Positions 7,542-62,173 of a DNA stretch of 64,000 nucleotides are shown piece by piece. Source of the DNA: a virus. The translations under genes were made by a program, and so were the position numbers. A model generated the notes under the pieces. That model had not been told where the DNA came from, did not search any database, and saw nothing but the letters and a program-made list of their open reading frames with translations. How positions within the stretch are numbered: the first letter of the stretch is position 1; the number at the start of each line of letters is the position of its first letter. The DNA is taken from positions 1 through 64,000 of the IMG/VR virus record IMGVR_UViG_3300048999_000166, one strand, 5' to 3'.

Positions 7542-8256
7542 AGCGGTATGCGAACGACCGGAGGCCGCGTGCGTCACGTGCCGCCCACCGAAGAATCGAG
7601 CCTGGCACCTGGCAATGTCCGGGCATCGAACGTGTGAGCGTTGCGCGGACCGGTTGCACGCGCAGCTGATCGAGGTGGCGGACCGCTACGAGGCGCTCAC
7701 GTCGGTGCCAGCACCGGCGGGAAGCTTCAATGACTTCCGGTGCTCGCCGGGATTCGTATCGCGCAGTCCCGCGTCCGATCACGTCATCGTCATGCGCGAT
7801 CACCGGAGTTCACCCGAGGCTAAGGTGTGGGTGGGCTCCGACGGACGGATTCACCAAGAATCTATTCGACCACCGCTCTCGGTCTATTCGACGCTCGTGA
7901 TCGAGGTTTATGACGTCGTCGAGCTGCGGGAGGTGGCGATGCCGGATCCGCGCGAGAACGTCCGCGACCTGACTGAGTTTCTCGATCGCCATCTCGATTG
8001 GCTGACACGGCAAGAGTCGGTGATCGAGTTCGCGGCGACCTTGCGCCGGCTGCGCAGCCAGCTCATGCCGCTCACCGGTTCGCCACGGGTGTTCCTCGGG
8101 ACGTGCCCGAACGAGGTAGACGAGCAGGTGTGCGGGCGGTCGCTCTACATCCCGACCGGATTCACCTACCGGGACACCGTCTCCTGCGGGAGCTGCGGCT
8201 GGGAGTGGCCTCCAGTCGATTGGATCGCGCTCGGCGACGTACTGGCCGCTAGTTGA
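7531..8256 (+). CDS. conserved phage protein with several CxxC pairs
   Basis: CVTC, CERC, CGSCG; operon packing. Confidence 0.7.
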   Translation: MSLEAVCERPEAACVTCRPPKNRAWHLAMSGHRTCERCADRLHAQLIEVADRYEALTSVPAPAGSFNDFRCSPGFVSRSPASDHVIVMRDHRSSPEAKVWVGSDGRIHQESIRPPLSVYSTLVIEVYDVVELREVAMPDPRENVRDLTEFLDRHLDWLTRQESVIEFAATLRRLRSQLMPLTGSPRVFLGTCPNEVDEQVCGRSLYIPTGFTYRDTVSCGSCGWEWPPVDWIALGDVLAAS

Positions 8257-8557: not shown

Positions 8558-8630
8558 GGGTTCGTAGCTCAACTGGATGAGCGTCGGCTTGTCGAGCCGA
8601 AGGATGCGGGTTCGAGTCCCGTCGTTCCCG
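8558..8630 (+). tRNA. trnD: tRNA-Asp(GUC), with two U-U mismatches in the acceptor stem
   Basis: D arm gctc/gagc, anticodon arm tcggc-ttGTCga-gccga, T arm gcggg-ttcgagt-cccgt, acceptor gggttcg/cgttccc, G discriminator; CCA not encoded. Confidence 0.8.
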
Positions 8631-8680
8631 CGCTGGAGCAGCTGCTCCAGTACCAACAGTTCCCCGCTGTTCCGTTGAAG

Positions 8681-12251: not shown

Positions 12252-12661
12252 TGGATCTTCTCCAGGTTCTCGGGCGGGATCGAGGCGGTGTGGTTGGGCG
12301 GGTTACCGTCCCAGTGCACTGTCACGTAGCGCTCGGGCGCGGTGTCGCTCACCCAGGGCCGCGGCACGACCTCGCCCTCGCGCCCGACCGAGATCAGCCG
12401 AACGCGATCGCCCTCGGAGAAGATCATCTCCGAGTAGAGCACCTCGGCGATCTCGCGGCCGGTTGCGTCGGTCTTGATCACCTTGGCCGTGACGGTGTTG
12501 AGCTTGCTCGCCAGGTGGTGAGCGTCGAGACCCGAGAGGTTGTCGGCGACGCGCAGCCAGCCGAGCGTGTCGAAGTCGTCGGTGGTATCGACCCAGACCG
12601 ACCAGCCACCGGGGGTGGTCGCCTCGGCGGCCGCGATCTGTTCACGTTGGTCGTGGGTCAT
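12248..12661 (-). CDS. hypothetical protein with SH3-like C-terminus
   Basis: FSEGDRVRL...GEVV...YVTVHWDG; ATGA coupling. Confidence 0.6.
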   Translation of the reverse strand: MTHDQREQIAAAEATTPGGWSVWVDTTDDFDTLGWLRVADNLSGLDAHHLASKLNTVTAKVIKTDATGREIAEVLYSEMIFSEGDRVRLISVGREGEVVPRPWVSDTAPERYVTVHWDGNPPNHTASIPPENLEKIH

Positions 12662-13065
12662 TTCGACCCCGGTGCCGGTCGTTGGATGTCCGGGACCAGC
12701 ACCTCGGGCTTGAAGATGACCTGGTACTCCAGCGTGCTCACGTTGACCCCGGTCAGCTGCTGAGAGAACCAGGTCACGTTGTCGGACAGCCCCTCCGAGT
12801 GCCGGATGAAGGTGGCGTCGGGCAGCTTGCACGTGACGTCGACCTGACGCGGTGCGGGGGCGAGCGAGCAGTTGCCCTCGATCGACAAGATGTACTTGTC
12901 GGTGATGCCGTTGTAGAACACCACGCGTCGCGGTACCTGGAACTGATCGGCCGCGGTCGTGAGGTTCTGGTTGGCGACGTCGGCGTCGGACGAGCAGCCC
13001 GCGAACACCGGAACGGCGATCATCAACAACAGCAAGAAGATCACGGTCTTGCGGAATTCGGTCAC
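12658..13065 (-). CDS. phage lipoprotein
   Basis: Signal peptide plus lipobox VFAG-C; ADVANQNL...RRVVFYNGITDKYILSIEG pattern of a widespread phage lipoprotein family. Confidence 0.75.
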   Translation of the reverse strand: MTEFRKTVIFLLLLMIAVPVFAGCSSDADVANQNLTTAADQFQVPRRVVFYNGITDKYILSIEGNCSLAPAPRQVDVTCKLPDATFIRHSEGLSDNVTWFSQQLTGVNVSTLEYQVIFKPEVLVPDIQRPAPGSK

Positions 13066-14162: not shown

Positions 14163-14443
14163 CAGTTATTCCTTCGGGCGTAGACCTTGGCGGCGTGGCC
14201 GTCGGTGGTCAGGTGGTAGTGGCCGTGCAGCGAACGCGGGCAGGCATACGCACGCAGCCGTGGTGCACCGGGCAGCTTCTCTAACTCATCGCGGGCCGCG
14301 AGCGCCTTTTCCTGGTCGTCGTAGATGATCTTCCGCTGAGCGTCGGGGCGGTCCTCGATCAGCGCCGCCTGGCACTTCATCGGGAAGCCGTTCGGGAACA
14401 ACCGGGCGTGGCGCTGGACGATGGCGAGAACTTCGGATTGCAT
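14162..14443 (-). CDS. conserved phage protein with C-terminal YxC...H motif
   Basis: RBS ggaagga, GATCATG start; RAYACPRSLHGHYHLTT. Confidence 0.65.
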   Translation of the reverse strand: MQSEVLAIVQRHARLFPNGFPMKCQAALIEDRPDAQRKIIYDDQEKALAARDELEKLPGAPRLRAYACPRSLHGHYHLTTDGHAAKVYARRNN

Positions 14444-14466
14444 GATCGTTTCCTTCCGTGTCGATC

Positions 14467-14526
14467 GGGCTGAGTTGCCCGGGGCTGACCGAGTAGCGAG
14501 TACTCGGTCACCCCCTGGATACTCAG
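14467..14526 (-). repeat. structured intergenic element, copy 1 of 11
   Basis: Sense: CTGAGT-atccag-GGGGTGACCGAGTA/TACTCGGTCAgCCCC-GGGC AACTCA GCCC; TGA is the stop of 14523-14801. Confidence 0.85.
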
Positions 14527-14801
14527 GACTTGAGGATCTTGTAGGCCAACGCTGCGCTGAACGCGTACTGGAACACGCACGCGATGGCGAGCAGTGGCCA
14601 GTCAATCGGGGTGCCGTCGACTCGATAGACGATCAGTCCGAGCACGGCGAGCACGGCCACGAACGGGAGCGGGAGTAGCAGGATCTTGCGCCAGACGCTC
14701 CGCTCTTGTTCCTTCCTCATCAGGGCTTCTACCACCTCCTTCTCGTTGGCTACGTAGCCGTAGACAGGCTCTAGGGCGTTGAGGAGCTGGTTGCGACTCA
14801 T
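14523..14801 (-). CDS. membrane protein, two transmembrane helices
   Basis: ILLLPLPFVAVLAVLGLIVY and WPLLAIACVFQYAFSAALAY. Confidence 0.6.
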   Translation of the reverse strand: MSRNQLLNALEPVYGYVANEKEVVEALMRKEQERSVWRKILLLPLPFVAVLAVLGLIVYRVDGTPIDWPLLAIACVFQYAFSAALAYKILKS

Positions 14802-14815
14802 GCGGTCGTAGTCGT

Positions 14816-15010
14816 TCACCTCGCGTCCTTCGTCTGCCCGTACCACTCCGCGTGGCATAGGCGGCAGAAGAACTCCAGGCACTCCGGGCGCGATCGCCAG
14901 CGGCTCTCGGCCTTGAACCTGACCGAGATCGACATAGTGCCCGCTCCGCACTTGACGCACCGGTGGTCGACGGGTGCCCGGAACGGTTGTAGGGCGTACT
15001 TGGTACTCAA
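14816..15010 (-). CDS. zinc-ribbon protein
   Basis: RBS aaggagg plus TTG; CVKC and CRLC. Confidence 0.55.
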   Translation of the reverse strand: MSTKYALQPFRAPVDHRCVKCGAGTMSISVRFKAESRWRSRPECLEFFCRLCHAEWYGQTKDAR

Positions 15011-15028
15011 CTGCCCTCCTTGATCGTT

Positions 15029-15092
15029 GAGCTGAGTTGCTCACCCACGGGCCGGAGCTGTGGAAGCCTCCGACCCGTCGAGTACGACTCAG
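15029..15092 (-). repeat. structured intergenic element, copy 2
   Basis: CTGAGT...ACGGGTCGGAG/CTCCGGCCCGT...GAGC AACTCA GCTC (compensatory change from GGGC/GCCC); TGA is the DUF932 stop. Confidence 0.85.
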
Positions 15093-16138
15093 ATCAGCTG
15101 CAGCCCGTGCAGCGCTTCGAGCACTCCGGCGTCGGTCTTCTCGACCTTGCCCGACAGCGTGTCGAACATGTTCCGCTCGACCCGCTGCGTCTCACCGCGC
15201 ACCGGGCGCTCGTGCTGGTCCCAGGTGTTGAACAGCTGCAGCACCCCGAACGCGTTGTCCTTCCAGGGCGCGACGCGCGGGTCGGTGTGCAGCATCGAGG
15301 TGAGCGCGTTGCGCTTGTTGTGCGCGGCGTTCTGGGCCAGCGGCGAGGACTCCTCGTCGACCGGAACCAGTACGCTGAGCACCTCCTTGAACTGCAGGTT
15401 CCCGATCTTTGCGCTGGTCAGCTGCCGCACCGCCGCCTCGAAGTTCTTCGAGGTCGACTCGATGATCTTCAGCGCATCGCGGGTCTGAGCGACCTTGTAG
15501 CCGGAGTTCGCGGTGTGCTTGAACTTCAGCGTGGTGCCCTCCTCGGTCAGAGCTGCGGACAGCGTGTTGTCGCAGACCGTCGCACCGATCGTGCGCTTGT
15601 AGGTCGTGGCGAGCGTTCCGTCGAACGAGGTGGCCGAGAGCAGGTTGGGCCGGTAGAGCACATCGTTGATGCTCTTGGTCTCCGGAACGCTGACCTCGGT
15701 CCACATCACCGCGCGGTTGCGCAGCAGACCCGCCGAAGAGATGATCAGATCGTCTGACAGCAGGCCCTGGATGTTCTCCAGCAGCCACTCCTTGAACTGG
15801 TGGGGCTTGTACCCCGCCTTGAACAGCCCGAGGGTCTCGTGTGTGTCGGACGTATCGATCGCCTGACGATCACGCTGCACCGCCCAGCGCAGCGGCTCAC
15901 CGCTCTCACCGAGATGGGTCATGTTCTCGTACGTCGCGGGCTTCTCGACCGCGACGCGCCGGGAGACGGCCTCCCAGTCGATCAAGCGACGCTCGACGTC
16001 GGCGTAGGGGATCGGGCCCGTGTAGTGGTTGGGCTCCGCGCCCTGGCTCGACTTGCGGTAGTGCCAGGCGTTGCCGCGCTCGGCAGTCATGCCGACCAGC
16101 ACGTTCTGGTTCAGCCACTGAGAGGTTTCCTTCGACAT
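15089..16138 (-). CDS. DUF932-family (phage/plasmid-like) protein
   Basis: MSKET...GNAWHY, SAGLLRNRA, LLSATSFDGT, VCDNTL, FKHT motifs typical of actinophage DUF932. Confidence 0.85.
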   Translation of the reverse strand: MSKETSQWLNQNVLVGMTAERGNAWHYRKSSQGAEPNHYTGPIPYADVERRLIDWEAVSRRVAVEKPATYENMTHLGESGEPLRWAVQRDRQAIDTSDTHETLGLFKAGYKPHQFKEWLLENIQGLLSDDLIISSAGLLRNRAVMWTEVSVPETKSINDVLYRPNLLSATSFDGTLATTYKRTIGATVCDNTLSAALTEEGTTLKFKHTANSGYKVAQTRDALKIIESTSKNFEAAVRQLTSAKIGNLQFKEVLSVLVPVDEESSPLAQNAAHNKRNALTSMLHTDPRVAPWKDNAFGVLQLFNTWDQHERPVRGETQRVERNMFDTLSGKVEKTDAGVLEALHGLQLI

Positions 16139-16177
16139 GGTCTGTGTCCTTTTGATCTAGTGAGTGTGGGTGTTAGT

Positions 16178-16208
16178 GCTGGTCGGGCCTTATGGAACCT
16201 ATCTTACC
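16178..16208 (-). promoter_or_regulatory. promoter -10 (TAAGAT) plus conserved leader, repeated at 18495-18525
   Basis: Sense GGTAAGATAGGTTCCATAAGGCCCGACCAGC versus GGTATGATAGTTCCGATAGGGCCTGACCAGC. Confidence 0.6.
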
Positions 16209-16243
16209 GGACTACGGGCGACTTCGCCAACTTGGTTTGAACT

Positions 16244-16492
16244 TCAGTCGACGTGGTTGTCGCGGTAGTCGTCCGGGTCCTGGTAGTACTCCGGGTCGTT
16301 GCGGTCGAGCTGCGGCACGGACACTTCGCCGGCCTCGATCAGGTCGCGGGCGGTGCGCCCGTAACTTCCTTGTAGGGACCAGGCGAGGCCAGTATCGACC
16401 AGCTCCTGGAACAACTCGACGGTCTCCTCGTCGGTGAGCATCGCGTGCTCGTAGTCGAGCAACCGGTTGTTGACGTCAACCATGTTCGACAT
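16244..16492 (-). CDS. conserved actinophage small protein
   Basis: ELFQELVDTGLAWSLQGSYGRTARDLI pattern. Confidence 0.7.
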   Translation of the reverse strand: MSNMVDVNNRLLDYEHAMLTDEETVELFQELVDTGLAWSLQGSYGRTARDLIEAGEVSVPQLDRNDPEYYQDPDDYRDNHVD

Positions 16493-16625
16493 CTCGGTTC
16501 TTCCTCTCAAGTTCTTTGATCTTGGTTTGCTGGAGTCGGACCAGCATGGTCAGTGCGAAGACCCAGAAGGTCAGCAGGTAGTTGACTCCTACCTGCGACC
16601 ACTCGGCCAGCTCGTGCAGGGTCAT
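16476..16625 (-). CDS. small membrane protein (not in ORF track)
   Basis: MTLHELAEWSQVGVNYLLTFWVFALTMLVRLQQ..., 49 aa, ATGA coupled. Confidence 0.55.
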   Translation of the reverse strand: MTLHELAEWSQVGVNYLLTFWVFALTMLVRLQQTKIKELERKNRDVEHG

Positions 16626-16864
16626 GTCTTGTCTCCGTCCCGGTACCACTTCTCTCGCTCGTCCGCCCAGGCGATCAGCGATTCACCGAGCTGGCGAGCA
16701 GTCCGGGTGCCGTCGATGTTGATCTGGACGATGCGCCCGATGTGAACGTCGGGCCCATCGATGATGCGGGCTTGGAGGCTGAACGTGCGCGGTGACGGTC
16801 CGAGGGTGCGTAGCGCCATGTTGGTGAACGCACCCACTCGGGCGTAGAACGGCTTCTTGCTCAC
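16622..16864 (-). CDS. hypothetical protein
   Basis: GTGA-coupled ORF. Confidence 0.5.
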   Translation of the reverse strand: MSKKPFYARVGAFTNMALRTLGPSPRTFSLQARIIDGPDVHIGRIVQINIDGTRTARQLGESLIAWADEREKWYRDGDKT

Positions 16865-17076
16865 TTCCTGGTCAACTCCCTCAGTACTTGATCCTTCTTG
16901 CCGGTGCCGGTGAAGCGCCGGCTCTCGCTGTTGGCGTAGGTGACGCCGCCCCGTACTGAGAACTCGATGAACACCCACCGCTTACCCTTGCGGGCGTTGA
17001 TCGTTCCCATGCCGGTCGTCACCTCCCACCCGTGCAGCCGGGCGACACCGAGGATCTCATCAGCCGCGCGTGCCAT
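16861..17076 (-). CDS. hypothetical protein
   Basis: ATG directly after upstream stop. Confidence 0.55.
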   Translation of the reverse strand: MARAADEILGVARLHGWEVTTGMGTINARKGKRWVFIEFSVRGGVTYANSESRRFTGTGKKDQVLRELTRK

Positions 17077-17078
17077 GG

Positions 17079-17372
17079 TCAGCTCCATCGATGTAGTGGG
17101 GCCAGATCGGGCGGGTGTTCGGAGTATCCGTCGGGGTACATCACGCTCGGTCCCATTAGCCAGTTGTCGAGCGTCGGCGGGCCAGCGGGCACCGGGTAGT
17201 CGATCGTGCTGAAACCGTCGAGCCACTCGGAGTGCGACATGTCGCTGCCCCAGTCGTTGAGGCCAGGCAGCTCGAACACCTCGCGGTACTCAGCCGCGGC
17301 CACCGCGTTGAGCGCGACGGCGTAGCGGGCCTGGATGTCACGGACGCGTTCGCTGTTGAGGTAGTAAGCCAT
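17079..17372 (-). CDS. hypothetical protein
   Basis: RBS aaggag, AAGATCATG start. Confidence 0.6.
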   Translation of the reverse strand: MAYYLNSERVRDIQARYAVALNAVAAAEYREVFELPGLNDWGSDMSHSEWLDGFSTIDYPVPAGPPTLDNWLMGPSVMYPDGYSEHPPDLAPLHRWS

Positions 17373-17402
17373 GATCTTGTTCTCCTTGGCTGGGTTGCGA
17401 TC

Positions 17403-17460
17403 GGGCTGAACCGCCCGCGCCGCGCCCGGTCACACTCCGGGGGCGACGCTAGTGGTTCAC
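17403..17460 (-). repeat. structured intergenic element, copy 3
   Basis: GTGAACC...hairpin...GGGC GGTTCA GCCC; TGA kept although it is not the stop codon. Confidence 0.8.
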
Positions 17461-17464
17461 CTCC

Positions 17465-17707
17465 TTACTTGATCAGCTCCTTCAGCTCTTCCTTGACCCG
17501 CTTGGCGACCGGGCCGCGCCAGTTGCGGGCGTTCGACAGGAAGTAGATGACGATCTCCTTCGCGTCGTCCTCCCCGAACTTGTCGTCGATCGCGGTCAGG
17601 TACTGCATCGCGTCGAGGTAGGGCACCGCTCCGAAGTAGACGTTGAGCCACTCGCGGGCGATCTCGTCGGCGATCTCGTGGATCGGGCGGACGTCGACTG
17701 CACTCAT
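17465..17707 (-). CDS. conserved actinophage small protein
   Basis: RPIHEIADEI...YFGAVPYLDAM...YFLSNARNWRG pattern. Confidence 0.75.
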   Translation of the reverse strand: MSAVDVRPIHEIADEIAREWLNVYFGAVPYLDAMQYLTAIDDKFGEDDAKEIVIYFLSNARNWRGPVAKRVKEELKELIK

Positions 17708-17727
17708 GATCTTGCCTCTCTGTTCGG

Positions 17728-17787
17728 TAGTCCCTGAGTGGACTATCGGCCGGGCGTGTCACTCGCCCGACCTCCTAGATCACTCAG
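17728..17787 (-). repeat. structured intergenic element, copy 4
   Basis: CTGAGTG...GGTCGGGCG/CGCCCGGCC...TAGTCC ACTCAG GGACTA; different small-hairpin sequence, same topology. Confidence 0.85.
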
Positions 17788-18146
17788 GCCCACGGTCGCA
17801 GTTGCCTCGGTGCGAACGGGGTCATCACATCGTTCACGATCACTTCGTAGGTCACTCCCCGCTGCGGGTAGGCCGAGGCGATGTAGCGGGTCTCGGTGGC
17901 GATCTGCTCACGGTCGGTCGAGCTGACCGGGACCGCGCGGTAGAGGGTGCCCTTGTGACGGAGTCCGGTGGTGTAGTCGACAGTCAGTCGCCGCGTACGT
18001 TCGCGCTTGAGTCGCGTCACTCGACCGATCTGCGCGTTGATCGAGTCGTCGCTCAAGTAGCGGATCAGGTCCCCTTCGAGCGATCGCTCAGTGGTGCGGA
18101 TCGCCTCGTCAAGCTCGAAGTCGCTCCAGTCATCGAAAGCAGTCAT
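17784..18146 (-). CDS. hypothetical protein
   Basis: AAGATCATG start, stop inside element. Confidence 0.6.
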   Translation of the reverse strand: MTAFDDWSDFELDEAIRTTERSLEGDLIRYLSDDSINAQIGRVTRLKRERTRRLTVDYTTGLRHKGTLYRAVPVSSTDREQIATETRYIASAYPQRGVTYEVIVNDVMTPFAPRQLRPWA

Positions 18147-18166
18147 GATCTTTACCTCTCTTGATC

Positions 18167-18231
18167 CAGTCCTGAGTTGGACTACAGACCTACCGGGCTG
18201 GCAGTACCGGTAGGTCGACTAGCTCACTCAG
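18167..18231 (-). repeat. structured intergenic element, copy 5
   Basis: CTGAGT...GACCTACCGG/CCGGTAGGTC...TAGTCC AACTCA GGACTG. Confidence 0.85.
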
Positions 18232-18464
18232 AGCAGGCGGCTCAGCTCTCGCTCGCCGGGGTTGTCATCGCGCGGGGCGACAACGGTGGTGTCCTCGGGA
18301 TTGCGGAACACGAATTGTCCGCGACCATTGATCACTCCGTGGGCGGAAACGACGGGCTTTCGAGTCTCGGTGGTGAGGGTCAAACCACTCACTCGCCAGT
18401 ACCCGGGCAACTCGGTAAAGGTCACGAGATCGCCGGTGCGGGGAAGAGATTCGATCTTGCTCAT
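18228..18464 (-). CDS. hypothetical protein
   Basis: First gene after the 18.5 kb promoter. Confidence 0.6.
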   Translation of the reverse strand: MSKIESLPRTGDLVTFTELPGYWRVSGLTLTTETRKPVVSAHGVINGRGQFVFRNPEDTTVVAPRDDNPGERELSRLL

Positions 18465-18494
18465 CTTCTTGGTCCTTTTCGGCTGGGTGTTTGG

Positions 18495-18525
18495 GCTGGT
18501 CAGGCCCTATCGGAACTATCATACC
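18495..18525 (-). promoter_or_regulatory. promoter -10 (TATGAT) plus conserved leader
   Basis: Paralogous to 16178-16208; imperfect inverted repeat ccgac/gtcgg upstream. Confidence 0.6.
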
Positions 18526-18602
18526 GTACAACCGACAAGCACGTCGGATTGTTCCTGAAATGATCTAGCACTCAGTCAACTTGACGTAGGAGGTGTTGAC
18601 CT

Positions 18603-19058
18603 ATGGCGAAGACGCTCCCGATCGAGACCGCCGAGCGGGAAGATCTCATCATCGATCTTCACGGCCAACATCTCCCGTGGCGAGAGATCTCTCGGCGGGT
18701 GGGGCTGAGCCATGAGCGCTGCCGCCAGATCTTCCAAGCCGCTCGTGACCGCATTCCGGCCGAGCGGCTGAACGATCTGCGCGTCGATCACCATGAGCTG
18801 GCGTACCGCGCAATTCACGATCTGCTCCAGATGGCGGAGAACCCGCAGATCTCGCCGCGCACTCGGGCCGAGTGTTGGAACGCGATCCGCGGCTGGAGCG
18901 AGTCCGACCGCAAGCTCTACGGGGTAGACGCGCCGACGCGCCGCGAGATCACCGTGATCTCCGACGACGCGATCAGCAACGCCATCACCGAACTCAACCG
19001 CGAGATGTCCGCGCTCGACGCTCAGGCCCGCGAACTCGGCATCTCGGTCGACGCTTAG
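18603..19058 (+). CDS. terminase small subunit-like HTH protein
   Basis: N-term HTH (WREISRRVGLSHERCRQI) and C-term ...RKLYGVDAP pattern typical of actinophage TerS; RBS aggagg. Confidence 0.6.
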   Translation: MAKTLPIETAEREDLIIDLHGQHLPWREISRRVGLSHERCRQIFQAARDRIPAERLNDLRVDHHELAYRAIHDLLQMAENPQISPRTRAECWNAIRGWSESDRKLYGVDAPTRREITVISDDAISNAITELNREMSALDAQARELGISVDA

Positions 19059-19630
19059 ATCTCAGTCCGGCGGTTGCGGATCCGTTCGATCCGCGCCGTT
19101 GGGCTGACGTGGTTGAGGTAGGTCGCGGTCGTGTCCAGGTGGGTGTGCCCGAGCTGGTCTCGGATCTCCATCACCGGCACGCCCTCCTGTGCCCACTCGA
19201 CAGCCGCGGTGTGCCGCAGTCCGTGAGCGTGCACCCGCTTGTCCACGCCCGCCCGCGCCGCTACTCGTTTCATCATGGCGCGGACGTAGCTGGTCGAGAC
19301 GGGGCCGCCCTTGAGGGTGCAGAACAGGTGGCGACCGCGTAGCCCGTGGGCGCGCCGCACTTCGATCCAGCGCACGACGTGCACGAGTGCGCCGAGATCG
19401 ATGCCGACCGTCCGGGACTTGTCACCCTTACCGTGCAGCACCCGGACGCTGGCCGCGTCAGTGTCCACATCGGACACTTTCAGCGCCAGCGCCTCGGACA
19501 CCCGCAGCCCCGCTCCGTACATCACGGCGATCAGGGCTCGGTTGCGGACACCAGTCGGTGCTCGATCCGATGGAGCGAGCAGAATTGATCTTGCCTCTTC
19601 CCGGGTCAAGATCTCTACCGGGTACCTCAT
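19055..19630 (-). CDS. minimal tyrosine recombinase (catalytic domain only)
   Basis: GLRVSE (R), GKGDK (K), HGLRH (HxxR), LGH, TATY; 191 aa; RBS gaaggag. Confidence 0.92.
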   Translation of the reverse strand: MRYPVEILTREEARSILLAPSDRAPTGVRNRALIAVMYGAGLRVSEALALKVSDVDTDAASVRVLHGKGDKSRTVGIDLGALVHVVRWIEVRRAHGLRGRHLFCTLKGGPVSTSYVRAMMKRVAARAGVDKRVHAHGLRHTAAVEWAQEGVPVMEIRDQLGHTHLDTTATYLNHVSPTARIERIRNRRTEI

Positions 19631-19649
19631 GTTGATCTCCTTCGACGCC

Positions 19650-19683
19650 TAGAGTGTCGGATCCTCAGGGAACCGACACTCTA
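19650..19683. other. loxP-like 13+8+13 inverted-repeat site, candidate recombinase target
   Basis: tagagtgtcggat-cctcaggg-aaccgacactcta; arms 12/13 identical; further gacgcc/ggcgtc extension. Confidence 0.6.
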
Positions 19684-19741
19684 TTGGCGTCTTGGCTGGT
19701 CAGTGGCTGGGTGGATCTTAGAAACGATACTCTATCCGTGA

Positions 19742-20362
19742 TCAACTGTCCTCGGCGTAGCGCCGTGCGGACCGGTGCGGCAGCGAGTCGGTAAGATCAA
19801 CTTGCACCGTCCAGGTCACCGCTTGGACCACCTGAGGCAGCTCGTCCAGTCGACGAGCGGCCTCACGGTACGCGTGCGCCAGCGTCGCGTACCGACGCTT
19901 GGTGGACAGTCCCCGATCGCGGTTGCCGTAGATCTCCCCGACCGCGATGTCATGCGCGTGCCGGTCGATCACTACCGCCTCAGCGTCCGTCGGATCGATG
20001 ATCGCCCGGAAGAAATTCCAGGTCTTCGAGTCGTCCGGCAGCACATCGAGCGGGTCCGCTCCGAGCATGATCCGCTCGGCCTTCCCGACCGCGTCGCGCA
20101 CCTGGCCGCGAACCTCGCCGGTAGCGAATGCTTCCCGAGCTAGTTTCACGTTGAAGGCCCAAGCTTTCTGGGGCGACAGAGCCGCGATCACTCCGGCCGC
20201 CGCCCGCGTGTTGCCCTCAGACATGAGGGTCGCCAGCTCGTTAGCGTGCGGGTACCACTGCCGGCCGCGGTCGATCTGCTCCGGGGTGGCCAGGTTCCAC
20301 GTGCTGATGATGTTTCGGACGTAGGTCTCGTGCTGTTCGTCGGTGGCGGTCGTCGGGATCAT
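19742..20362 (-). CDS. conserved phage protein (DUF7178-like)
   Basis: GRQWY, AGVIAALSPQ, KTWNF, VVIDRHA, VQAVTW pattern. Confidence 0.7.
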   Translation of the reverse strand: MIPTTATDEQHETYVRNIISTWNLATPEQIDRGRQWYPHANELATLMSEGNTRAAAGVIAALSPQKAWAFNVKLAREAFATGEVRGQVRDAVGKAERIMLGADPLDVLPDDSKTWNFFRAIIDPTDAEAVVIDRHAHDIAVGEIYGNRDRGLSTKRRYATLAHAYREAARRLDELPQVVQAVTWTVQVDLTDSLPHRSARRYAEDS

Positions 20363-20384
20363 GGTCTGTCTCCTCTGTACTCAC

Positions 20385-20445
20385 GGGCTGAACCGCCCGA
20401 GCGGTGCACCGACCAGGGCCGGTGCACCACTCTCCGATGGTTCAG
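20385..20445 (-). repeat. structured intergenic element, copy 6
   Basis: CTGAACC/GGTTCAG 7 bp; 16-bp inner stem; GGGC GGTTCA GCCC. Confidence 0.9.
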
Positions 20446-20449
20446 ACAG

Positions 20450-20513
20450 CTTGCAAAGGTTGTCTTGTTGTGCAGAGGTTGTCTTGCTTGCAAAGGTTGT
20501 CTTGGTTGTCTTG
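20450..20513. repeat. iteron-like direct repeats GGTTGTCTTG x4
   Basis: 20458-67, 20477-86, 20495-504, 20504-13; cttgcaaaggttgtcttg occurs twice. Confidence 0.75.
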
Positions 20514-20526
20514 CTAGATCAACAAC

Positions 20527-21648
20527 CTAGGCGGCCAGCGGTGGCGGGTCCAAGCCCACCGCGTCGCGGGAGTAGCCGCGTACCTGAGTGCCCTTCCAGT
20601 ACTGCCGTTCGGCATGCGCCTCGAACACGGCCAGTCCGTTAGCGAGCCCCATATCAGCGGACCGATCCGACTGCCACTCATCCATGATCGACGTACGCTG
20701 AGGCAGCGCCTCCAGCCTGACCAGGATCTCGGCGGTCGGCAGGAAGTCATCACCGTCAGTGAACGTCGCCTGAACGTTGGCGAGCAACTCTTCGAACGGG
20801 TCCAAGATCGCCTCGTCCTCAGGCGCCCACTTGCCTAGCGCGAACGTGTTCGCGGCCTTCTCGACACGCTCCGGCCACGCGTCACCCAGGTATCGGGCGA
20901 TCCGGAATAGGACCGTCCAGATCTCCTCTGCTCGGTTGGCGATGTCCTCTGACATCAATCCTTCGATCGGAATCGAGAGGATCGAGCTAGCGGCATTGCC
21001 ACCCCAACGGGTGAGACGCTCCCGGAGTGCCATGACTCGATCGTCATGCAACTCCGGGTTATACCGGGCGAGCCGAACGTCACGCGGCTTAGGTTCGAGG
21101 ATGATCGAAATCGACCTCGAACGGAGCGTATCGAACGGACCGTCGGGCATAAACCAGACACTCGCGTTCTTGCCATTGAGCACCATCGGCCCGAACGGGT
21201 CGAGCCGCTCGGCGACGCCACCGCGTACCTGAGTTACCTTCGCTCCACCGCGCCGGTATCCCATATTCAGGATGCCCTTCATGCGCAGCTTAGAGTTCGC
21301 GCCGCGCCCGAAGTGGGTGTCGATTTCATCGAACCCGAGCGTTGCGTGATCTTCGTTCATCATCGCCACGATGGACGGCGGACTAGGATCGCCGATCATC
21401 TCGCCGTTGAAGCTCAGCGCGATGGTCAACTCGGTGGCCAGGGACTTACCGGCGCCCGGTTGCTTCGATCCGAAGTACAGCCGCGGCGTGACGCGGGGCA
21501 GCAATCGCCCATCGTTGTCGCGTAGGTGGGTGTGCATAGCCCACAGAGTCGACACCACATAGGCCGAATCATTCGGCATGTGCATAAACTCGCGGTACAC
21601 CCGCTCTACCTGATTGGCCAGGAGTTGATCCTGGGTGAACTTTCTCAT
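20527..21648 (-). CDS. DUF3631-like P-loop ATPase (putative replication helicase)
   Basis: GSKQPGAGKS, LGFDEID, TLRSRSISI, RAEEIWTVLFRIA...WPER; GATCATG start. Confidence 0.75.
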   Translation of the reverse strand: MRKFTQDQLLANQVERVYREFMHMPNDSAYVVSTLWAMHTHLRDNDGRLLPRVTPRLYFGSKQPGAGKSLATELTIALSFNGEMIGDPSPPSIVAMMNEDHATLGFDEIDTHFGRGANSKLRMKGILNMGYRRGGAKVTQVRGGVAERLDPFGPMVLNGKNASVWFMPDGPFDTLRSRSISIILEPKPRDVRLARYNPELHDDRVMALRERLTRWGGNAASSILSIPIEGLMSEDIANRAEEIWTVLFRIARYLGDAWPERVEKAANTFALGKWAPEDEAILDPFEELLANVQATFTDGDDFLPTAEILVRLEALPQRTSIMDEWQSDRSADMGLANGLAVFEAHAERQYWKGTQVRGYSRDAVGLDPPPLAA

Positions 21649-21675
21649 GATCGATTTCCTCTTGGCTGGAGCATT

Positions 21676-21738
21676 GGGCTGTACCGCCCGAGCACGGCAG
21701 GGTCGCATTCCCTGCCGCACTCCCTAGGCACAGTTCAA
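21676..21738 (-). repeat. structured intergenic element, copy 7
   Basis: TGAACT...13-bp inner stem...GGGC GGTACA GCCC. Confidence 0.75.
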
Positions 21739-21756
21739 TTGTAGCCTATTACTGAC

Positions 21757-21840
21757 TCACAGTCGACCGGTCGCTTGCAAGAAGCCACCGACCAGGCCGA
21801 CCATCCAGAATGACGCCACGTAAGCGATATCCCACCTCAT
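21757..21840 (-). CDS. 27-aa hydrophobic peptide (not in ORF track)
   Basis: MRWDIAYVASFWMVGLVGGFLQATGRL, GATCATG start. Confidence 0.4.
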   Translation of the reverse strand: MRWDIAYVASFWMVGLVGGFLQATGRL

Positions 21841-21842
21841 GA

Positions 21843-22127
21843 TCAAACCGCCGTTCCGGGGTACTGAACGGCGCTGGTCACGTAAGCGGGCGCGCTCTCC
21901 ATCACGAATTCCTTGCCAACGTCACCTACTGGGTGCAGCAGGCTGGACAACAGGTGGACTTTGAGCATTCCCATTCCGACGCTCACCTTGAGAAAGGTGC
22001 GGACGCCGTCGTGGTAGGTATCCACCCAGAACCGCTTCATATCGGTCTCAGCGTGGTGCAGCTTGCCGTGTGCGGGGTGCGCCGGGTGAAGATTGGCGCG
22101 CTGCATACGGGCAACGGTGCGGTTCAT
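21843..22127 (-). CDS. hypothetical protein
   Basis: RBS gaggag. Confidence 0.55.
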   Translation of the reverse strand: MNRTVARMQRANLHPAHPAHGKLHHAETDMKRFWVDTYHDGVRTFLKVSVGMGMLKVHLLSSLLHPVGDVGKEFVMESAPAYVTSAVQYPGTAV

Positions 22128-22149
22128 CTGGATCACTCCTCATCGGTAC

Positions 22150-22208
22150 GGGCTGAATCGCCCGGCAGACGCTCCGGAGCTAGCTCCGGAGCGACCCGCA
22201 CGGTTCAG
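22150..22208 (-). repeat. structured intergenic element, copy 8
   Basis: CTGAACC...CGCTCCGGAGC/GCTCCGGAGCG...GGGC GATTCA GCCC; TGA is the upstream stop. Confidence 0.85.
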
Positions 22209-22633
22209 TAACTAGCCACCGATTGCCCGGCCGCAAAGTCGAACACGGCCAACTGATCATGCTCACGCGCTAGGGCTAGTGCGCGGTCGCGGTCGGTGAC
22301 CAGCGTCGAGACGTCGAGGTAGATACGTCCGTCGGCAGGGTCGCGCCAACCACCAAACACGGCGCCGTCGCGCGCTAGCGCGTCCGCGTGCCGTACTACG
22401 TACTCGATCAAGTCACCAGGGGTGACCGAACCGAGCACCACACCCTCTCCGGGGTAGACGCTGACCGCATAACCTCCGGTCACGTCCGCGCCCGTGTGCG
22501 GGTCGATCGTGAAACCATCATCGGGGCGGGTGAGCCGCTCGGCCAGTTCGACCAGCCGCGGCTGTACCGCCGTGAGCGCGTCCCTATCCTCGCGTGCCCA
22601 CTCGGCCACGCGCGGATCGTAGGCAGCAGTCAT
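22205..22633 (-). CDS. conserved phage protein
   Basis: DGFTID...GYAVS...GGWRD...IYLDVS...QLAVFD pattern. Confidence 0.7.
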   Translation of the reverse strand: MTAAYDPRVAEWAREDRDALTAVQPRLVELAERLTRPDDGFTIDPHTGADVTGGYAVSVYPGEGVVLGSVTPGDLIEYVVRHADALARDGAVFGGWRDPADGRIYLDVSTLVTDRDRALALAREHDQLAVFDFAAGQSVASY

Positions 22634-22658
22634 GATCTTGTCCTTAGCTCGACGTGCC

Positions 22659-22720
22659 GGGCTGACTTGCCCGAGCGTCGGCACCGGAGCGAACTCCGGT
22701 GCCGCACTCTGTGCGGTCAG
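22659..22720 (-). repeat. structured intergenic element, copy 9
   Basis: CTGAC...GGCACCGGAG-TTCG-CTCCGGTGCC...GGGC AAGTCA GCCC. Confidence 0.9.
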
Positions 22721-22899
22721 GCCACCTGTTCGAACGTGACGTTCAGCGGGAATCCGAACGTGTCGTGCCAGCGCTTGTCCACCGCGGCTACGTGCTGCTT
22801 CAACTGCGGGAACGTCCCCGTGTAGGCGGTCCGCGAGTTCACCTGACCGTTGATCTTGGTGGTCACGGTGTACTTATGGATCTTCTCTGCGTAATTCAT
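22717..22899 (-). CDS. hypothetical protein
   Basis: Bounded by two elements; RBS gaggag, GATCATG. Confidence 0.6.
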   Translation of the reverse strand: MNYAEKIHKYTVTTKINGQVNSRTAYTGTFPQLKQHVAAVDKRWHDTFGFPLNVTFEQVA

Positions 22900-22916
22900 G
22901 ATCACTCCTCAGTGAA

Positions 22917-22977
22917 GGGCTGACTTGCCCGCGCAGGGCACCGGAGCCGAACTCCGATGCCCTCCGCATGCACTCAG
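22917..22977 (-). repeat. structured intergenic element, copy 10
   Basis: CTGAG...AGGGCATCGGAG/CTCCGGTGCCCT...GGGC AAGTCA GCCC. Confidence 0.9.
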
Positions 22978-23180
22978 GCCAGATGACGCCGCTTGGCTTC
23001 TCGCCTCACCGCGCGCCCACCTAGGATCGTGTGAATATCAGGCACTACAACATCATCGTGCATCTTGATCAAGTGCCGTAGCGCGCCGTCGGTCACAACG
23101 GCCCGGTTGGCTGTCAGATCCCGCAGCGCCCGAACACGGGCGCGGAGGTCGGCTGACGTCAGAATCTGTACGTCACTCAT
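22974..23180 (-). CDS. hypothetical protein
   Basis: Bounded by two elements. Confidence 0.6.
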   Translation of the reverse strand: MSDVQILTSADLRARVRALRDLTANRAVVTDGALRHLIKMHDDVVVPDIHTILGGRAVRREAKRRHLA

Positions 23181-23198
23181 GATCTTGTCCTCTCACTA

Positions 23199-23260
23199 GG
23201 GCTGACTTGCCCGCGCAGAGCACCGGCCCGTGTGGGCCGATGCTCTCCGCATGCGGTCAG
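23199..23260 (-). repeat. structured intergenic element, copy 11
   Basis: CTGAC...AGAGCATCGGCCC/GGGCCGGTGCTCT...GGGC AAGTCA GCCC. Confidence 0.9.
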
Positions 23261-23463
23261 AACTCCTCGTGATCCACTACGTCCCGGAACACCCGCCGTA
23301 CGCGGTCGGCCCGCTCGGTGAGCGGTCCGTACGCGGGCGGCCACTCCAGCTGCTCTAGCGTTGCCGCTACTTGCTGGACGATCACCTCTCGTCCACTGGT
23401 CATCCGCTCCGCCCGCAGGCGGTAGGTGGCGGACCGGCTGGACATGAGCGGTACTGCAGTCAT
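23257..23463 (-). CDS. hypothetical protein
   Basis: GATCATG start, stop in element. Confidence 0.6.
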   Translation of the reverse strand: MTAVPLMSSRSATYRLRAERMTSGREVIVQQVAATLEQLEWPPAYGPLTERADRVRRVFRDVVDHEEF

Positions 23464-24017: not shown

Positions 24018-24056
24018 AAAAAAGAACGCGCCCCCGCTCCAAGAGGGCGCGTTCTT
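24018..24056 (-). terminator. intrinsic terminator
   Basis: aagaacgcgccc/gggcgcgttctt stem with T6 on the minus strand. Confidence 0.8.
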
Positions 24057-24173
24057 CGTACTACCGTCAGCGCTGCTGACCCTACCATTGCCCGCGTCCG
24101 CGGGCGAGCTGCTAGTCTCGCCCGCGTAGTGCACTCCACAGGGTGAGAACGGCCCGCGTCTTGCCAGCCCTTC

Positions 24174-28085: not shown

Positions 28086-28168
28086 GCGCGTCGTGGGCGG
28101 AGCGGCCGCCCAGCGGCCTGTAAAGCCGCCGACCTTGGTCATGCCTGGTTCGAACCCAGGGACGCGCA
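28086..28168 (+). tRNA. trnY: tRNA-Tyr(GUA)
   Basis: Acceptor gcgcgtc/gacgcgc, anticodon arm gcggc-ctGTAaa-gccgc, long variable arm, T loop ttcgaac. Confidence 0.9.
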
Positions 28169-28169
28169 C

Positions 28170-28245
28170 CGACGTGTAGCTCAGACGGCAGAGCACCGGC
28201 CTGAAGTGCCGGGGGTCGCAGGTTCAACTCCTGCCGCGTCGGCCA
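28170..28245 (+). tRNA. trnF: tRNA-Phe(GAA)
   Basis: Acceptor cgacgtg/cgcgtcg, anticodon arm ccggc-ctGAAgt-gccgg, T loop ttcaact, encoded CCA. Confidence 0.85.
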
Positions 28246-61965: not shown

Positions 61966-62033
61966 CACGGGCGGAAGGAATCGAACCCTCGCCTGGCGGT
62001 TTTGGAGACCGCCGGCTCGCCATGAGCGCCCAT
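61966..62033 (-). tRNA. trnW: tRNA-Trp(CCA) with shortened D arm
   Basis: Acceptor atgggcg/cgcccgt, anticodon arm gcggt-ctCCAaa-accgc, T arm gaggg-ttcgatt-ccttc; only 14 nt between acceptor and anticodon stems. Confidence 0.75.
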
Positions 62034-62034
62034 C

Positions 62035-62096
62035 TGGTGACGACAGGGCCCCGACCAGAAGGAGTTTGGGACGCCCCGGTTCGAGGCCCTGTCATC
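62035..62096 (-). ncRNA. 62-nt long hairpin ending in ACCA, between two tRNAs
   Basis: gatgacagggcc/ggccctgtcgtc 12-bp terminal stem plus acca; fills the whole tRNA spacer. Confidence 0.55.
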
Positions 62097-62097
62097 G

Positions 62098-62173
62098 TAG
62101 CGGTTCCGAGATTCGAACTCGGGATCTCAAGGTTATGAGCCTTGCGGGGACGGCCGAACTCCCCTAAACCGCT
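62098..62173 (-). tRNA. trnM: tRNA-Met(CAU), elongator type (or Ile2)
   Basis: Acceptor agcggtt/aaccgct, anticodon arm caagg-ctCATaa-ccttg, T arm ccgag-ttcgaat-ctcgg. Confidence 0.9.

Follow-up and report, generated by a model that had tools for sequence, protein, structure and literature searches.

A covarying RNA element repeated ahead of accessory genes in an uncultured soil phage: a candidate portable mRNA leader

The genome considered here is that of an uncultured soil phage, assembled from a soil metagenome as a single contig of 122,429 bp with a GC content of 0.65 and direct terminal repeats, and rated complete; the window analysed is its first 64 kb (positions 1 to 64,000 of IMG/VR record IMGVR_UViG_3300048999_000166). 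Between 14.4 and 23.3 kb lies a block formed by a series of small minus-strand genes, the majority of no known function, in which DUF3631, DUF7178 and DUF932 genes, a 191-residue tyrosine recombinase consisting of the catalytic domain only and one plus-strand helix-turn-helix (HTH) gene were recognized. Eleven copies of a structured element of 57-63 nucleotides (nt), which are the subject of this study, are found between the genes of this block. They had been pointed out in a first-pass annotation made from the sequence letters alone, and all eleven are present at the places given there, on the minus (sense) strand and within 14467-23260. The relatives of the phage's proteins are all distant, with identities that do not exceed 46%, and most come from phages of Rhodococcus, Gordonia, Mycobacterium and Microbacterium; an actinobacterial host is therefore presumed. 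Nucleotide-level and protein searches of the GenBank phage collection returned no close relative, the top matches being 46% identical proteins of Rhodococcus, Gordonia and Mycobacterium phages.

Read along the minus strand, each element follows the order described in the first-pass annotation: a 5' arm, B (TGAnnn), a linker a few bases long, a long variable hairpin, H, a short spacer, and a mini-hairpin in which a 4 bp stem, A/A', encloses a 6 nt loop, followed by a ribosome-binding site (RBS) and a start codon. Hairpin H is GC-rich and contains 8-13 Watson-Crick pairs with a calculated stability of -20 to -30 kcal/mol, and its sequence is unrelated between copies. The loop of the mini-hairpin ends at its 3' side in TCA (ACA in the fifth copy, e5) and is the partner, B', of arm B. 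The distance from A' to the start is 17-30 nt, including the Shine-Dalgarno sequence and the start codon, with the RBS lying 5-18 nt past A'. A degenerate 14 nt core, GRGCNNNWCAGCYC, has 11 matches in the window compared with 0.54 +/- 0.72 in shuffled sequences; nine of the 11 are elements, and the two remaining elements, e7 and e8, carry GTCC/GGAC instead. No further copies were found in the remaining 113 kb of the genome, either by regular-expression scanning or with the covariance model R2 described below. Compared with dinucleotide shuffles, the folds of the copies have z-scores of -2.8 to -6.0, and at most one in 200 shuffles equals any copy.

The copies are numbered e1 to e11 in the sense direction. 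Element e1 (23199-23259; z-score -5.8) has the arm TGAC(CG) and the mini-hairpin GGGC-AAGTCA-GCCC, lies 18 nt upstream of an ATG and is identical to its orthologue in the related contig L005. In e2 (22917-22976) the arm TGAGTG matches the loop AAGTCA over three base pairs only (TGA/TCA), while the L005 orthologue, with TGACC, restores 4 bp with the loop. Element e3 (22659-22719) pairs TGAC with GTCA and its hairpin H is capped by UUCG, a loop of the kind that had been claimed; e4 (22150-22207) pairs TGAA(CC) with the loop GATTCA over 4 bp. For e5 (21676-21737) the arm had been named as TGAAC, but the arm that matches the loop, GGTACA, is TGTGCC (21732-21727), 5 nt further downstream, with one G-U pair. 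Element e6 (20385-20444) forms 6 bp between TGAACC and GGTTCA; it follows a non-coding repeat region and its B arm is not a stop codon. The following copies are e7 (18169-18230; z-score -2.8), with TGAGT/ACTCA and the mini-stem (A)GTCC/GGAC(T); e8 (17730-17786), with TGAGTG/CACTCA, the mini-stem TAGTCC/GGACTA and the loop shifted by one base; and e9 (17403-17459), with TGAACC/GGTTCA, which is orthologous to the copy at L051:12867 and has, 8 nt before B, the TAA stop of the upstream gene. Finally, e10 (15029-15091) combines TGAGT/ACTCA with the mini-stem GAGC/GCTC, a compensatory change, and precedes a TTG start by 18 nt, and e11 (14467-14525; z-score -6.0) combines TGAGT/ACTCA with GGGC/GCCC. 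The TGA of arm B is the in-frame stop codon of the upstream open reading frame in eight of the eleven copies (e1-e4, e7, e8, e10 and e11; in e10 that of the DUF932 gene), as the first-pass annotation had it. Its mini-stem types, GGGC/GCCC, GAGC/GCTC and (TA)GTCC/GGAC(TA), are likewise all borne out, and its arm/loop types hold for TGAGT/ACTCA (e7, e8, e10 and e11), TGAACC/GGTTCA (e6 and e9) and TGAC/GTCA (e1 and e3), with the details of e2, e4, e5 and e8 corrected as above.

Relatives carrying the element were reached by two routes: a protein scan with the DUF7178 gene led to the IMG/VR contigs L051 and L052, and a scan with the core motif matched the same two contigs. L051 is syntenic with the window over 25.5 to 17.1 kb, with 55-93% amino-acid identity. 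A covariance model, R1, was built from six copies in relatives and was rebuilt as R2 from 17 matches; together, the two models recover eight of the eleven window copies, eight copies in L051, four in L052, two in L016 and two in L005. Orthologous element positions are retained in L051 and L005. Scanning with patterns, the model and scripts added, among the matches listed, about ten further contigs of viruses with GC contents of 0.49-0.71 that carry the motif: two copies in L116, three good copies in L182 (GC 0.58), three in L212 (GC 0.49) and two in L129 (GC 0.71), together with L206, L333 and L214 (identical to L199). In all of the distant contigs the motif is followed within about 15-40 nt by an RBS and a start codon. 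Most of the matches listed for wide-gap patterns were chance ones, and a locus was retained only if it had additional copies or scored well with the model. A pattern scan of 185,579 prokaryote genomes gave 44 isolated matches in unrelated bacteria, with weak model scores and no second copy, which were taken as chance, and it identified no host and no bacterial chromosome or prophage as a home for the element; a protein scan of metagenome contigs returned four short contigs, none of which contained elements. The element is regarded as real, structurally well supported and moderately widespread.

Two further phages that encode homologues of genes in the element-bearing block were found to carry repeats of their own. 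In Rhodococcus phage Trogglehumper (L049, OQ709222) the sequence CACTCACCGAATCAAGGGAGACA stands immediately ahead of many starts between 1075 and 7585, and L053:7500-9600 contains a ACCGCTTCGGCGGT hairpin followed by GATCACAACTGGAGG. Both were considered as instances of the same element and rejected, being different start-associated repeats; such repeats seem to be common and lineage-specific in these phages.

The pairings B/B' and A/A', both of which had been claimed to covary, do so in alignments made with and without a fitted structure. In a MAFFT alignment of 20 copies, to which no structure was fitted, the two helices are paired in 92.4% of cells, compared with 16-50% when one partner is slid; six of the ten pairs are altered on both sides, and none of 500 shuffles reaches this level. 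In the model-fitted alignment, A8, which contains 22 copies from the phage and its relatives, 93.4% of cells pair, compared with 27-44% with slid partners, 15 of 22 pairs are altered on both sides (in 75 cells) and none of 500 shuffles reaches any of the measures. A8 leans towards the structure of the model, to which A/A', as a pseudoknot, was added from outside. Hairpin H was assessed on A8 because MAFFT was unable to register the H stems or e7 and e8; nine of its 12 pairs are altered on both sides.

Individual comparisons illustrate how the changes are coupled. The copies at L052:9706 and L052:10624 are identical save for the exchange of one G-C pair for A-U in H, the H of e6 has been rebuilt through compensatory changes in its orthologue at L051:9920, and arm and loop have changed together between e3 (TGAC/GTCA) and its orthologue at L051:7359 (TGAAC/GTTCA). 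The near-invariant triplet, which is much more conserved as UGA/UCA than arm positions 4-6, covaries as well, being TAAG/CTTA in L052:8807 and TGTGCC/GGTACA in e5. Across some ten contigs, 14 arm/loop combinations and about eight mini-stem types were counted among the matches listed; the former include, in other phages, TGAAT/ATTCA, TGAGCC/GGCTCA, TGAGCA/TGCTCA, TGAGCG/(C)GCTCA, TGAGG/CCTCA and TGACG/CGTCA, and the latter GAGC/GCTC, GGAC/GTCC, GTCC/GGAC, GGTC/GACC, AGGC/GCCT and GGGU/GCCC. Because some copies had been found with patterns that force four arm/loop pairs, positions 4-5 were tested solely in those 17 distinct combinations for whose discovery no requirement had been placed on B; 30 of their 34 cells pair, a value reached by none of 20,000 shuffles. 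It is very likely that the element represents a real folded single strand.

The folded strand is probably RNA rather than single-stranded DNA. The G-U pairs that had been assigned to the minus strand are indeed embedded in the H stems, where the sense strand has 16 G-T oppositions and one A-C, an asymmetry which makes mRNA the most likely folded strand; G-U pairs are also found in B/B' (e5 and L051:6590) and in A/A' (L052:8240), and the sense strand is the more stable of the two in 16 of 20 copies. Folded without pseudoknots, most copies give as their minimum-energy structure one long hairpin of 18-24 pairs, interrupted in most copies by an internal loop, with B/B' as the lower stem and H as the upper stem. 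This fold borrows bases of A, and the alternative comprising H and A/A' lies within a few kcal/mol of it and is nearly isoenergetic. Since B/B' and A/A' both covary, the RNA should either form both at once or switch between two folds, and the computation is equally compatible with a compact pseudoknot between the loop and the 5' arm and with two alternative conformations. Were both pairings to form together, the six-base loop would be wholly paired to the 5' arm; fully paired six-base loops occur in kissing-loop complexes, and at L051:6590 the B arm itself lies within the loop of a GCGC/GCGC mini-hairpin in a true loop-loop arrangement. The RBS is neither occluded nor freed by either fold.

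The position of the element with respect to neighbouring genes is tightly constrained. Its 3' edge always precedes an RBS and a start codon, and its 5' edge coincides with the upstream stop codon in about 17 of 28 copies from the window and its relatives, the remaining 5' edges lying 4-12 nt after the upstream stop or 5-7 nt after a -10 box (TACAAT or TATACT). An example of the latter is e5, in which a sigma-70-like promoter-like site found by promoter scanning (TCGACT-17-TACAAT, 21738-21766, minus strand) ends one base before the element; orthologous and related copies have TGCTATACT or GGTATACT 5-6 nt ahead of B. In such promoter-proximal copies the predicted transcript start is at or adjoining B, and since B would supply the first bases of the primary transcript, a helix would enclose the 5' end. 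No element is present at genes overlapping the one upstream of them (16244-17372 and 14523-15010), from which it follows that the element heads a translation unit and not every gene. Readings of the TGA as part of a selenocysteine insertion sequence, a read-through signal or a frameshift site were dropped, since the frame after the UGA closes within about 20 codons without joining the next gene; they are also disfavoured by B being often out of frame in relatives.

Other leaders in the block are of a different kind. The -10 boxes TAAGAT, TATGAT and TAGAGT (16150-16215, 18470-18535 and 19690-19740, respectively, minus strand) are followed by leaders rich in CCAGCC or ACCCA that contain no element, so that the block has two kinds of gene leader. 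Between the TAGAGT box and the start of the recombinase gene lies a near-perfect 13 bp inverted repeat with an 8 nt spacer (19644-19691), the hairpin of which is kept in the orthologue at L051:10680-10720 by compensatory changes (GTCGG/CCGAC versus GTCGAATC/GATTCGAC); it could equally well be a hairpin of the RNA leader or a site for the recombinase. On the minus strand at 20455-20530, in the non-coding stretch upstream of e6 and after the DUF3631 gene, are four or five tandem repeats of the type CAAGACAACC, iteron-like in appearance, which could constitute a protein-binding or origin-like array. The gene at 18603-19058, the only plus-strand gene inside the array, encodes a 151-residue product, conserved in L051 (85%) and L052 (53%), with a weak N-terminal HTH or sigma region-4-like signal; the PHROG label 'Rnase E' for this gene was not upheld, Pfam RNase_E_G having no match in the genome, and looks unreliable. 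A search of the 122 kb genome found no gene for an RNase III, an RNase E/G, an S1-domain protein or a Y1 transposase; any processing of the transcripts would thus have to be performed by host enzymes or by an unrecognized phage protein.

The sequencing runs listed as containing the stretch are represented by DNA contigs from soil metagenomes only, with no RNA run among them. Contigs of close relatives from four soil-metagenome runs belonging to three studies provided variants of the same block, in which single genes, units of a gene with its element, or the recombinase gene have been replaced or lost. In some of them 21754-22227, which contains e4 and its gene, is replaced by 125 other letters, and 22723-23073 is likewise replaced by 125 other letters. 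A soil variant lacks 17714-18485, and with it e7, e8 and their two genes, a variant duplicates the unit 22679-22913, and a soil variant joins 19058 directly to 19739, eliminating the recombinase gene; the segment 16858-17087 is missing or replaced in soil variants. The accessory block is highly mosaic within one soil population. Some of the breakpoints fall in RBS-proximal sequence or at genes without elements (17714-18485 and 16858-17087). In L051, elements that are 100% identical (7840-7896 and 8200-8256) stand on either side of a single gene, and an identical or nearly identical pair (12318-12374 and 12867-12922) flanks another; such pairs suggest that modules of a gene with its element were inserted or duplicated recently, or that gene conversion took place between copies. 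The repeats give the impression of handy seams for ordinary recombination, not of sites on which a dedicated recombinase acts.

Searches of Rfam bear out the earlier remark that the element was not recognized as a known family. Rfam 15 contains no match to it: at gathering score only tRNAs were returned for the window, and at E-values of up to 5 nothing relevant was returned for 14300-23400; models for hammerhead, twister, pistol, hatchet, hepatitis delta virus (HDV)-like and RAGATH RNAs were among those that found no match in the region. The window has five scattered tRNA genes (Asp, Tyr, Phe, Trp and Met; 8558-8631, 28086-28245 and 61967-62173).

Among the functions that had been offered for the element, a cis-acting structure of the mRNA fits best, given the covariation in all three helices, the sense-strand bias, the fixed place between a stop codon or promoter and an RBS, and the absence of a match in Rfam; that part of the earlier proposal stands, while no specific role among those it listed can be assigned. 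With chances that we regard as about even, the element would be a modular 5'-leader and intercistronic mRNA structure that caps and insulates each translation unit, acting as the portable leader of one gene or of a block of overlapping genes. The foot of H would be closed by the 4-6 bp formed between B (UGAnnn) and the loop of the GGGC-nnnUCA-GCCC hairpin, a fold that would sequester the 5' end of a transcript, be it primary or processed, and leave H as a hairpin at the 3' end of the upstream cistron, possibly after cutting at the element by a host endonuclease. Each cistron would in this way be shielded from decay that depends on 5' and 3' ends, and its RBS would be kept free of the influence of upstream sequence; as a by-product, the repeats would serve as seams for the gain, loss and duplication of gene modules among related phages. 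A portable structured leader is favoured because it covers promoter-proximal and intercistronic copies alike, and a stabilizing, insulating or processing role, rather than another role at the RNA level, may be tentatively preferred at slightly less than even chances. The proposal also agrees with what is known of actinobacterial RNA decay: the GC-rich, structured 5' regions of mycobacterial RNAs withstand bulk decay, RNase J being needed for them (PMC9312406), and the cuts made by RNase E in single-stranded RNA lie 5' of C and often fall within 5' untranslated regions and intergenic regions (PMC10641625).

Several observations weigh against this interpretation or temper the evidence for it. 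The copies within one genome are paralogues, some of whose likeness stems from recent duplication or gene conversion, so that counting cells exaggerates how many independent events there were. In this GC-rich genome a generic arm-hairpin-mini-hairpin descriptor has 16-20 chance matches per strand; so loose a descriptor is unspecific in GC-rich DNA and was therefore dropped as evidence, and the case for the element rests on shared motif, position and covariation, not on foldability alone. G-T wobbles form in single-stranded DNA as well, and hence the strand asymmetry is not strict proof of RNA. Other genes of the block (16138, 18464 and 19630) have promoters and leaders without the element, which is therefore not required for expression in general. 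The host RNases are assumed to be actinobacterial on the basis of protein relatives only. Finally, UGA/UCA and GGGC/GCCC are near-invariant across distant phages, where pairing alone would allow more variation, which hints at a sequence-specific partner or at a role for the stop codon itself. As a pure stabilizer leaves this near-invariance unexplained, rival accounts based on coupling to termination and on sequence-specific binding stay alive.

In the broader of the two accounts that involve the stop codon, which we consider rather doubtful, the element is an uncatalogued and fairly widespread phage RNA motif, portable per accessory gene, in which the stop codon forms a strand of a pseudoknot with the mini-hairpin near the following RBS, and either termination remodels the next leader, as in a termination-sensing coupling or hand-over device, or an exonuclease-resistant knot marks cistron boundaries. 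The narrower account, a translation device linked to termination, seems unlikely: the upstream stop codon would be the 5' arm, a ribosome that terminates there would open B/B' and leave H folded, and the stop would be brought through space to within a few nucleotides of the next RBS, leading to re-initiation or to a switch in the fold of the mini-hairpin, that is, to structure-assisted translational coupling over a gap of about 90 nt. Such a device would account for the UGA of B being an in-frame stop in eight of the eleven window copies and in about 17 of 28 overall, the true stop otherwise lying 4-12 nt upstream; for its replacement by another stop with a matching loop (UAA, in frame after UAG, in L052:8807); and for the far higher conservation of UGA/UCA than of positions 4-6. 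A switch would be expected to have, as here, conformations of nearly equal energy with and without B/B', and the elements occur exactly at non-overlapping genes, while overlapping genes, which are already coupled, lack them. However, e5, e6, L051:8630 and L052:9706 follow promoters or long non-coding stretches, where no ribosome would arrive, and the triplet is not a stop in e5 (UGU) or in L051:12318 and 12867 (CGA). The RBS is, moreover, unaffected by either fold, and TGA is in any case the commonest stop codon in genomes with 65% GC.

A sequence-specific RNA-binding protein of phage or host might read the mini-hairpin, with B/B' modulating access, as in boxB/N, put-type antitermination or a translational operator. 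The mini-hairpin is of boxB-like size (4 bp with a 6 nt loop), is far more conserved than H in phages with GC contents of 0.49-0.71 and stands at a fixed distance upstream of starts. Nevertheless, its stem covaries (GAGC/GCTC, GGAC/GTCC, GTCC/GGAC, AGGC/GCCT and GGTC/GACC) and loop positions 1-3 vary freely with B, which leaves a protein little to recognize beyond UCA; the genome yielded no candidate RNA-binding protein, having no RNase III, RNase E/G or S1 domain, and eleven antitermination sites in 9 kb would be unprecedented. A role as a protein-binding site is accordingly given a low probability.

We attach equally little weight to a function at the DNA level, either as an attC-like or other single-strand site for the embedded tyrosine recombinase, or as a dispersed repeat spread by recombination at cassette borders. 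Like integron attC sites, the elements are imperfect palindromes of about 60 bp, conserved at the ends and variable in the centre; each promoterless gene cassette or module has one, their orientation is uniform and their folding strand-specific, and the recombinase gene lies inside the array; module breakpoints occur near elements in relatives, single genes are flanked by identical copies, and the strand-specific G-T pairs would suit a folded DNA strand too. The first-pass annotation had listed an attC-like site among its options, but this is poorly supported. The recombinase, the sole tyrosine recombinase present, is Xer-like and has 191 residues of catalytic domain only, scoring 80.5 bits against the integron integrase model TIGR02249, the cut-off of which is 265; no IntI-type integrase (about 320 residues with the integron-specific insertion) was found. 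Its gene is not present in the syntenic slot of L052 or in a soil variant, both of which retain elements, and the fragments G002-G004 contain elements and no recombinase in the parts available. The ends of the elements read TGA and TCAGCCC, without the attC cores R'' (RYYYAAC) and R' (GTTRRRY), and none of the copies has GTTRRRY at its 3' end; a gene for a Y1 (HUH) transposase is likewise lacking (PF01797 had no match in the 122 kb genome). Some breakpoints lie at RBS-level sequence or at genes without elements, fitting ordinary homologous or illegitimate recombination, and, in contrast to attC, the folded strand is the coding strand; the tight spacing to the RBS and start and the placement right after -10 boxes would be natural in an RNA leader, but not in a recombination site.

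That the element is a new class of small self-cleaving ribozyme, cutting the polycistronic mRNA between genes, is very improbable. Its pseudoknotted topology, its length of about 60 nt and the lack of an Rfam match would be compatible with this second option of the first-pass annotation, and intercistronic motifs and ribozymes of phages (RAGATH; hammerhead, twister, pistol and HDV-like) are likewise small structured RNAs repeated within one operon. Nonetheless, almost all conserved positions are base-paired, there is no block of conserved unpaired nucleotides, and the linker and the spacer between H and A vary in length and sequence, which leaves no conserved catalytic core; the strand order, in which an arm is followed by a long hairpin and by a mini-hairpin whose loop pairs back, is unlike that of HDV-like, pistol, twister and hatchet RNAs. 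It is just as improbable that the copies are factor-independent terminators or attenuators lacking U-tracts: strong GC-rich H hairpins do stand directly after stop codons, but no copy is followed by a U-tract, the terminator scan lists none of the elements while finding the canonical U-run terminator at 24021-24057, copies just after promoters would abort their own transcripts, and the covarying B/B' and A/A' have no role in termination. The terminator at 24021-24057 (minus strand; 15 bp stem and U-run) lies a short way upstream of the element-bearing block and is probably where the minus-strand unit before it comes to an end.

The element offers a pairing that can be put to the test, between a stop-codon arm and a loop near the following RBS, and its presence in phages with GC contents from 0.49 to 0.71 makes it probable that it is a general device for organizing the polycistronic mRNAs of accessory genes. 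If it acts as a stabilizer or insulator, it would be a natural counterpart of the insulators of synthetic biology and could serve as it stands as a part for high-GC hosts; if it links termination with re-initiation, translational coupling would have a new mode. Accessory genes are swapped among related soil phages at seams that the element marks, which bears on the origin of phage mosaicism.

Comparison with described systems places the portable leader proposed here among several precedents. The 5'-terminal stem-loops that stabilize bacterial mRNAs, such as the ompA leader, and the exonuclease-resistant pseudoknots (xrRNAs) of RNA viruses share with the element a stable structure that engages the very 5' nucleotides, a pseudoknot closing a ring on the 5' side, and a predicted effect of shielding from 5'-end-dependent decay; they have no homology to it in sequence or fold, and the element differs from them in being repeated inside polycistronic units and in overlapping stop codons. 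The RNase III processing signals R0.3-R1.3 between the early genes of T7, with counterparts in the Bacillus phages SP82 and SPO1, are likewise repeated hairpins of about 60 nt between consecutive early genes and just before the next RBS, in which the flanks form a lower stem that an internal loop separates from an upper stem. A signal of this type comprises about two helical turns of double-stranded RNA broken by an internal loop, against which the long-hairpin fold of the element offers its 18-24 pairs. When RNase III substrates contain internal loops, they are cut once and protective 3' hairpins remain (PMC1540722), and an upstream mRNA with such a hairpin at its 3' end is the product expected in both cases. 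The lower stem of the element, however, is of 4-6 bp only and competes with the covarying A/A', a hairpin into which the internal loop can fold on its 3' side instead, and the phage encodes no RNase III.

The nearest described system, and a close conceptual precedent, is that of the SAS (start-associated sequences) and their extended form, ESAS, of Cluster K mycobacteriophages. An SAS is a 13 bp repeat flanked by GGG and CCC at the starts of non-structural genes, and about half of the copies are preceded by an imperfect inverted repeat with a variable spacer that could form a hairpin (PMC3203893; PMC12699233). Both systems comprise 11-19 repeats per genome, in one orientation and confined to the non-structural region, which stand upstream of the starts of a subset of genes, are conserved at orthologous genes and contain a short motif flanked by GGG and CCC. 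They are nevertheless distinct: the SAS consensus GGGATAGGAGCCC has no match in the window at up to two mismatches, compared with 2.1 expected by chance; the SAS holds the Shine-Dalgarno sequence itself, a few bases from the start, whereas the mini-hairpin of the element lies 17-30 nt upstream and is followed by a separate RBS; and the ESAS arms are a pair of 17 bp imperfect inverted repeats with a consensus for each subcluster, whereas the H arms of the element share none and are kept by covariation only. The pairing of arm to loop and the overlap with the stop codon are features of the element, and none has been described for SAS or ESAS. The function of SAS and ESAS has gone unexplained since 2011, and the element gives repeats of this type a defined covarying RNA fold, adding to the logic of the start-associated repeat the pairing of a 5' arm, usually including a stop codon, with the loop that lies ahead of the next start.

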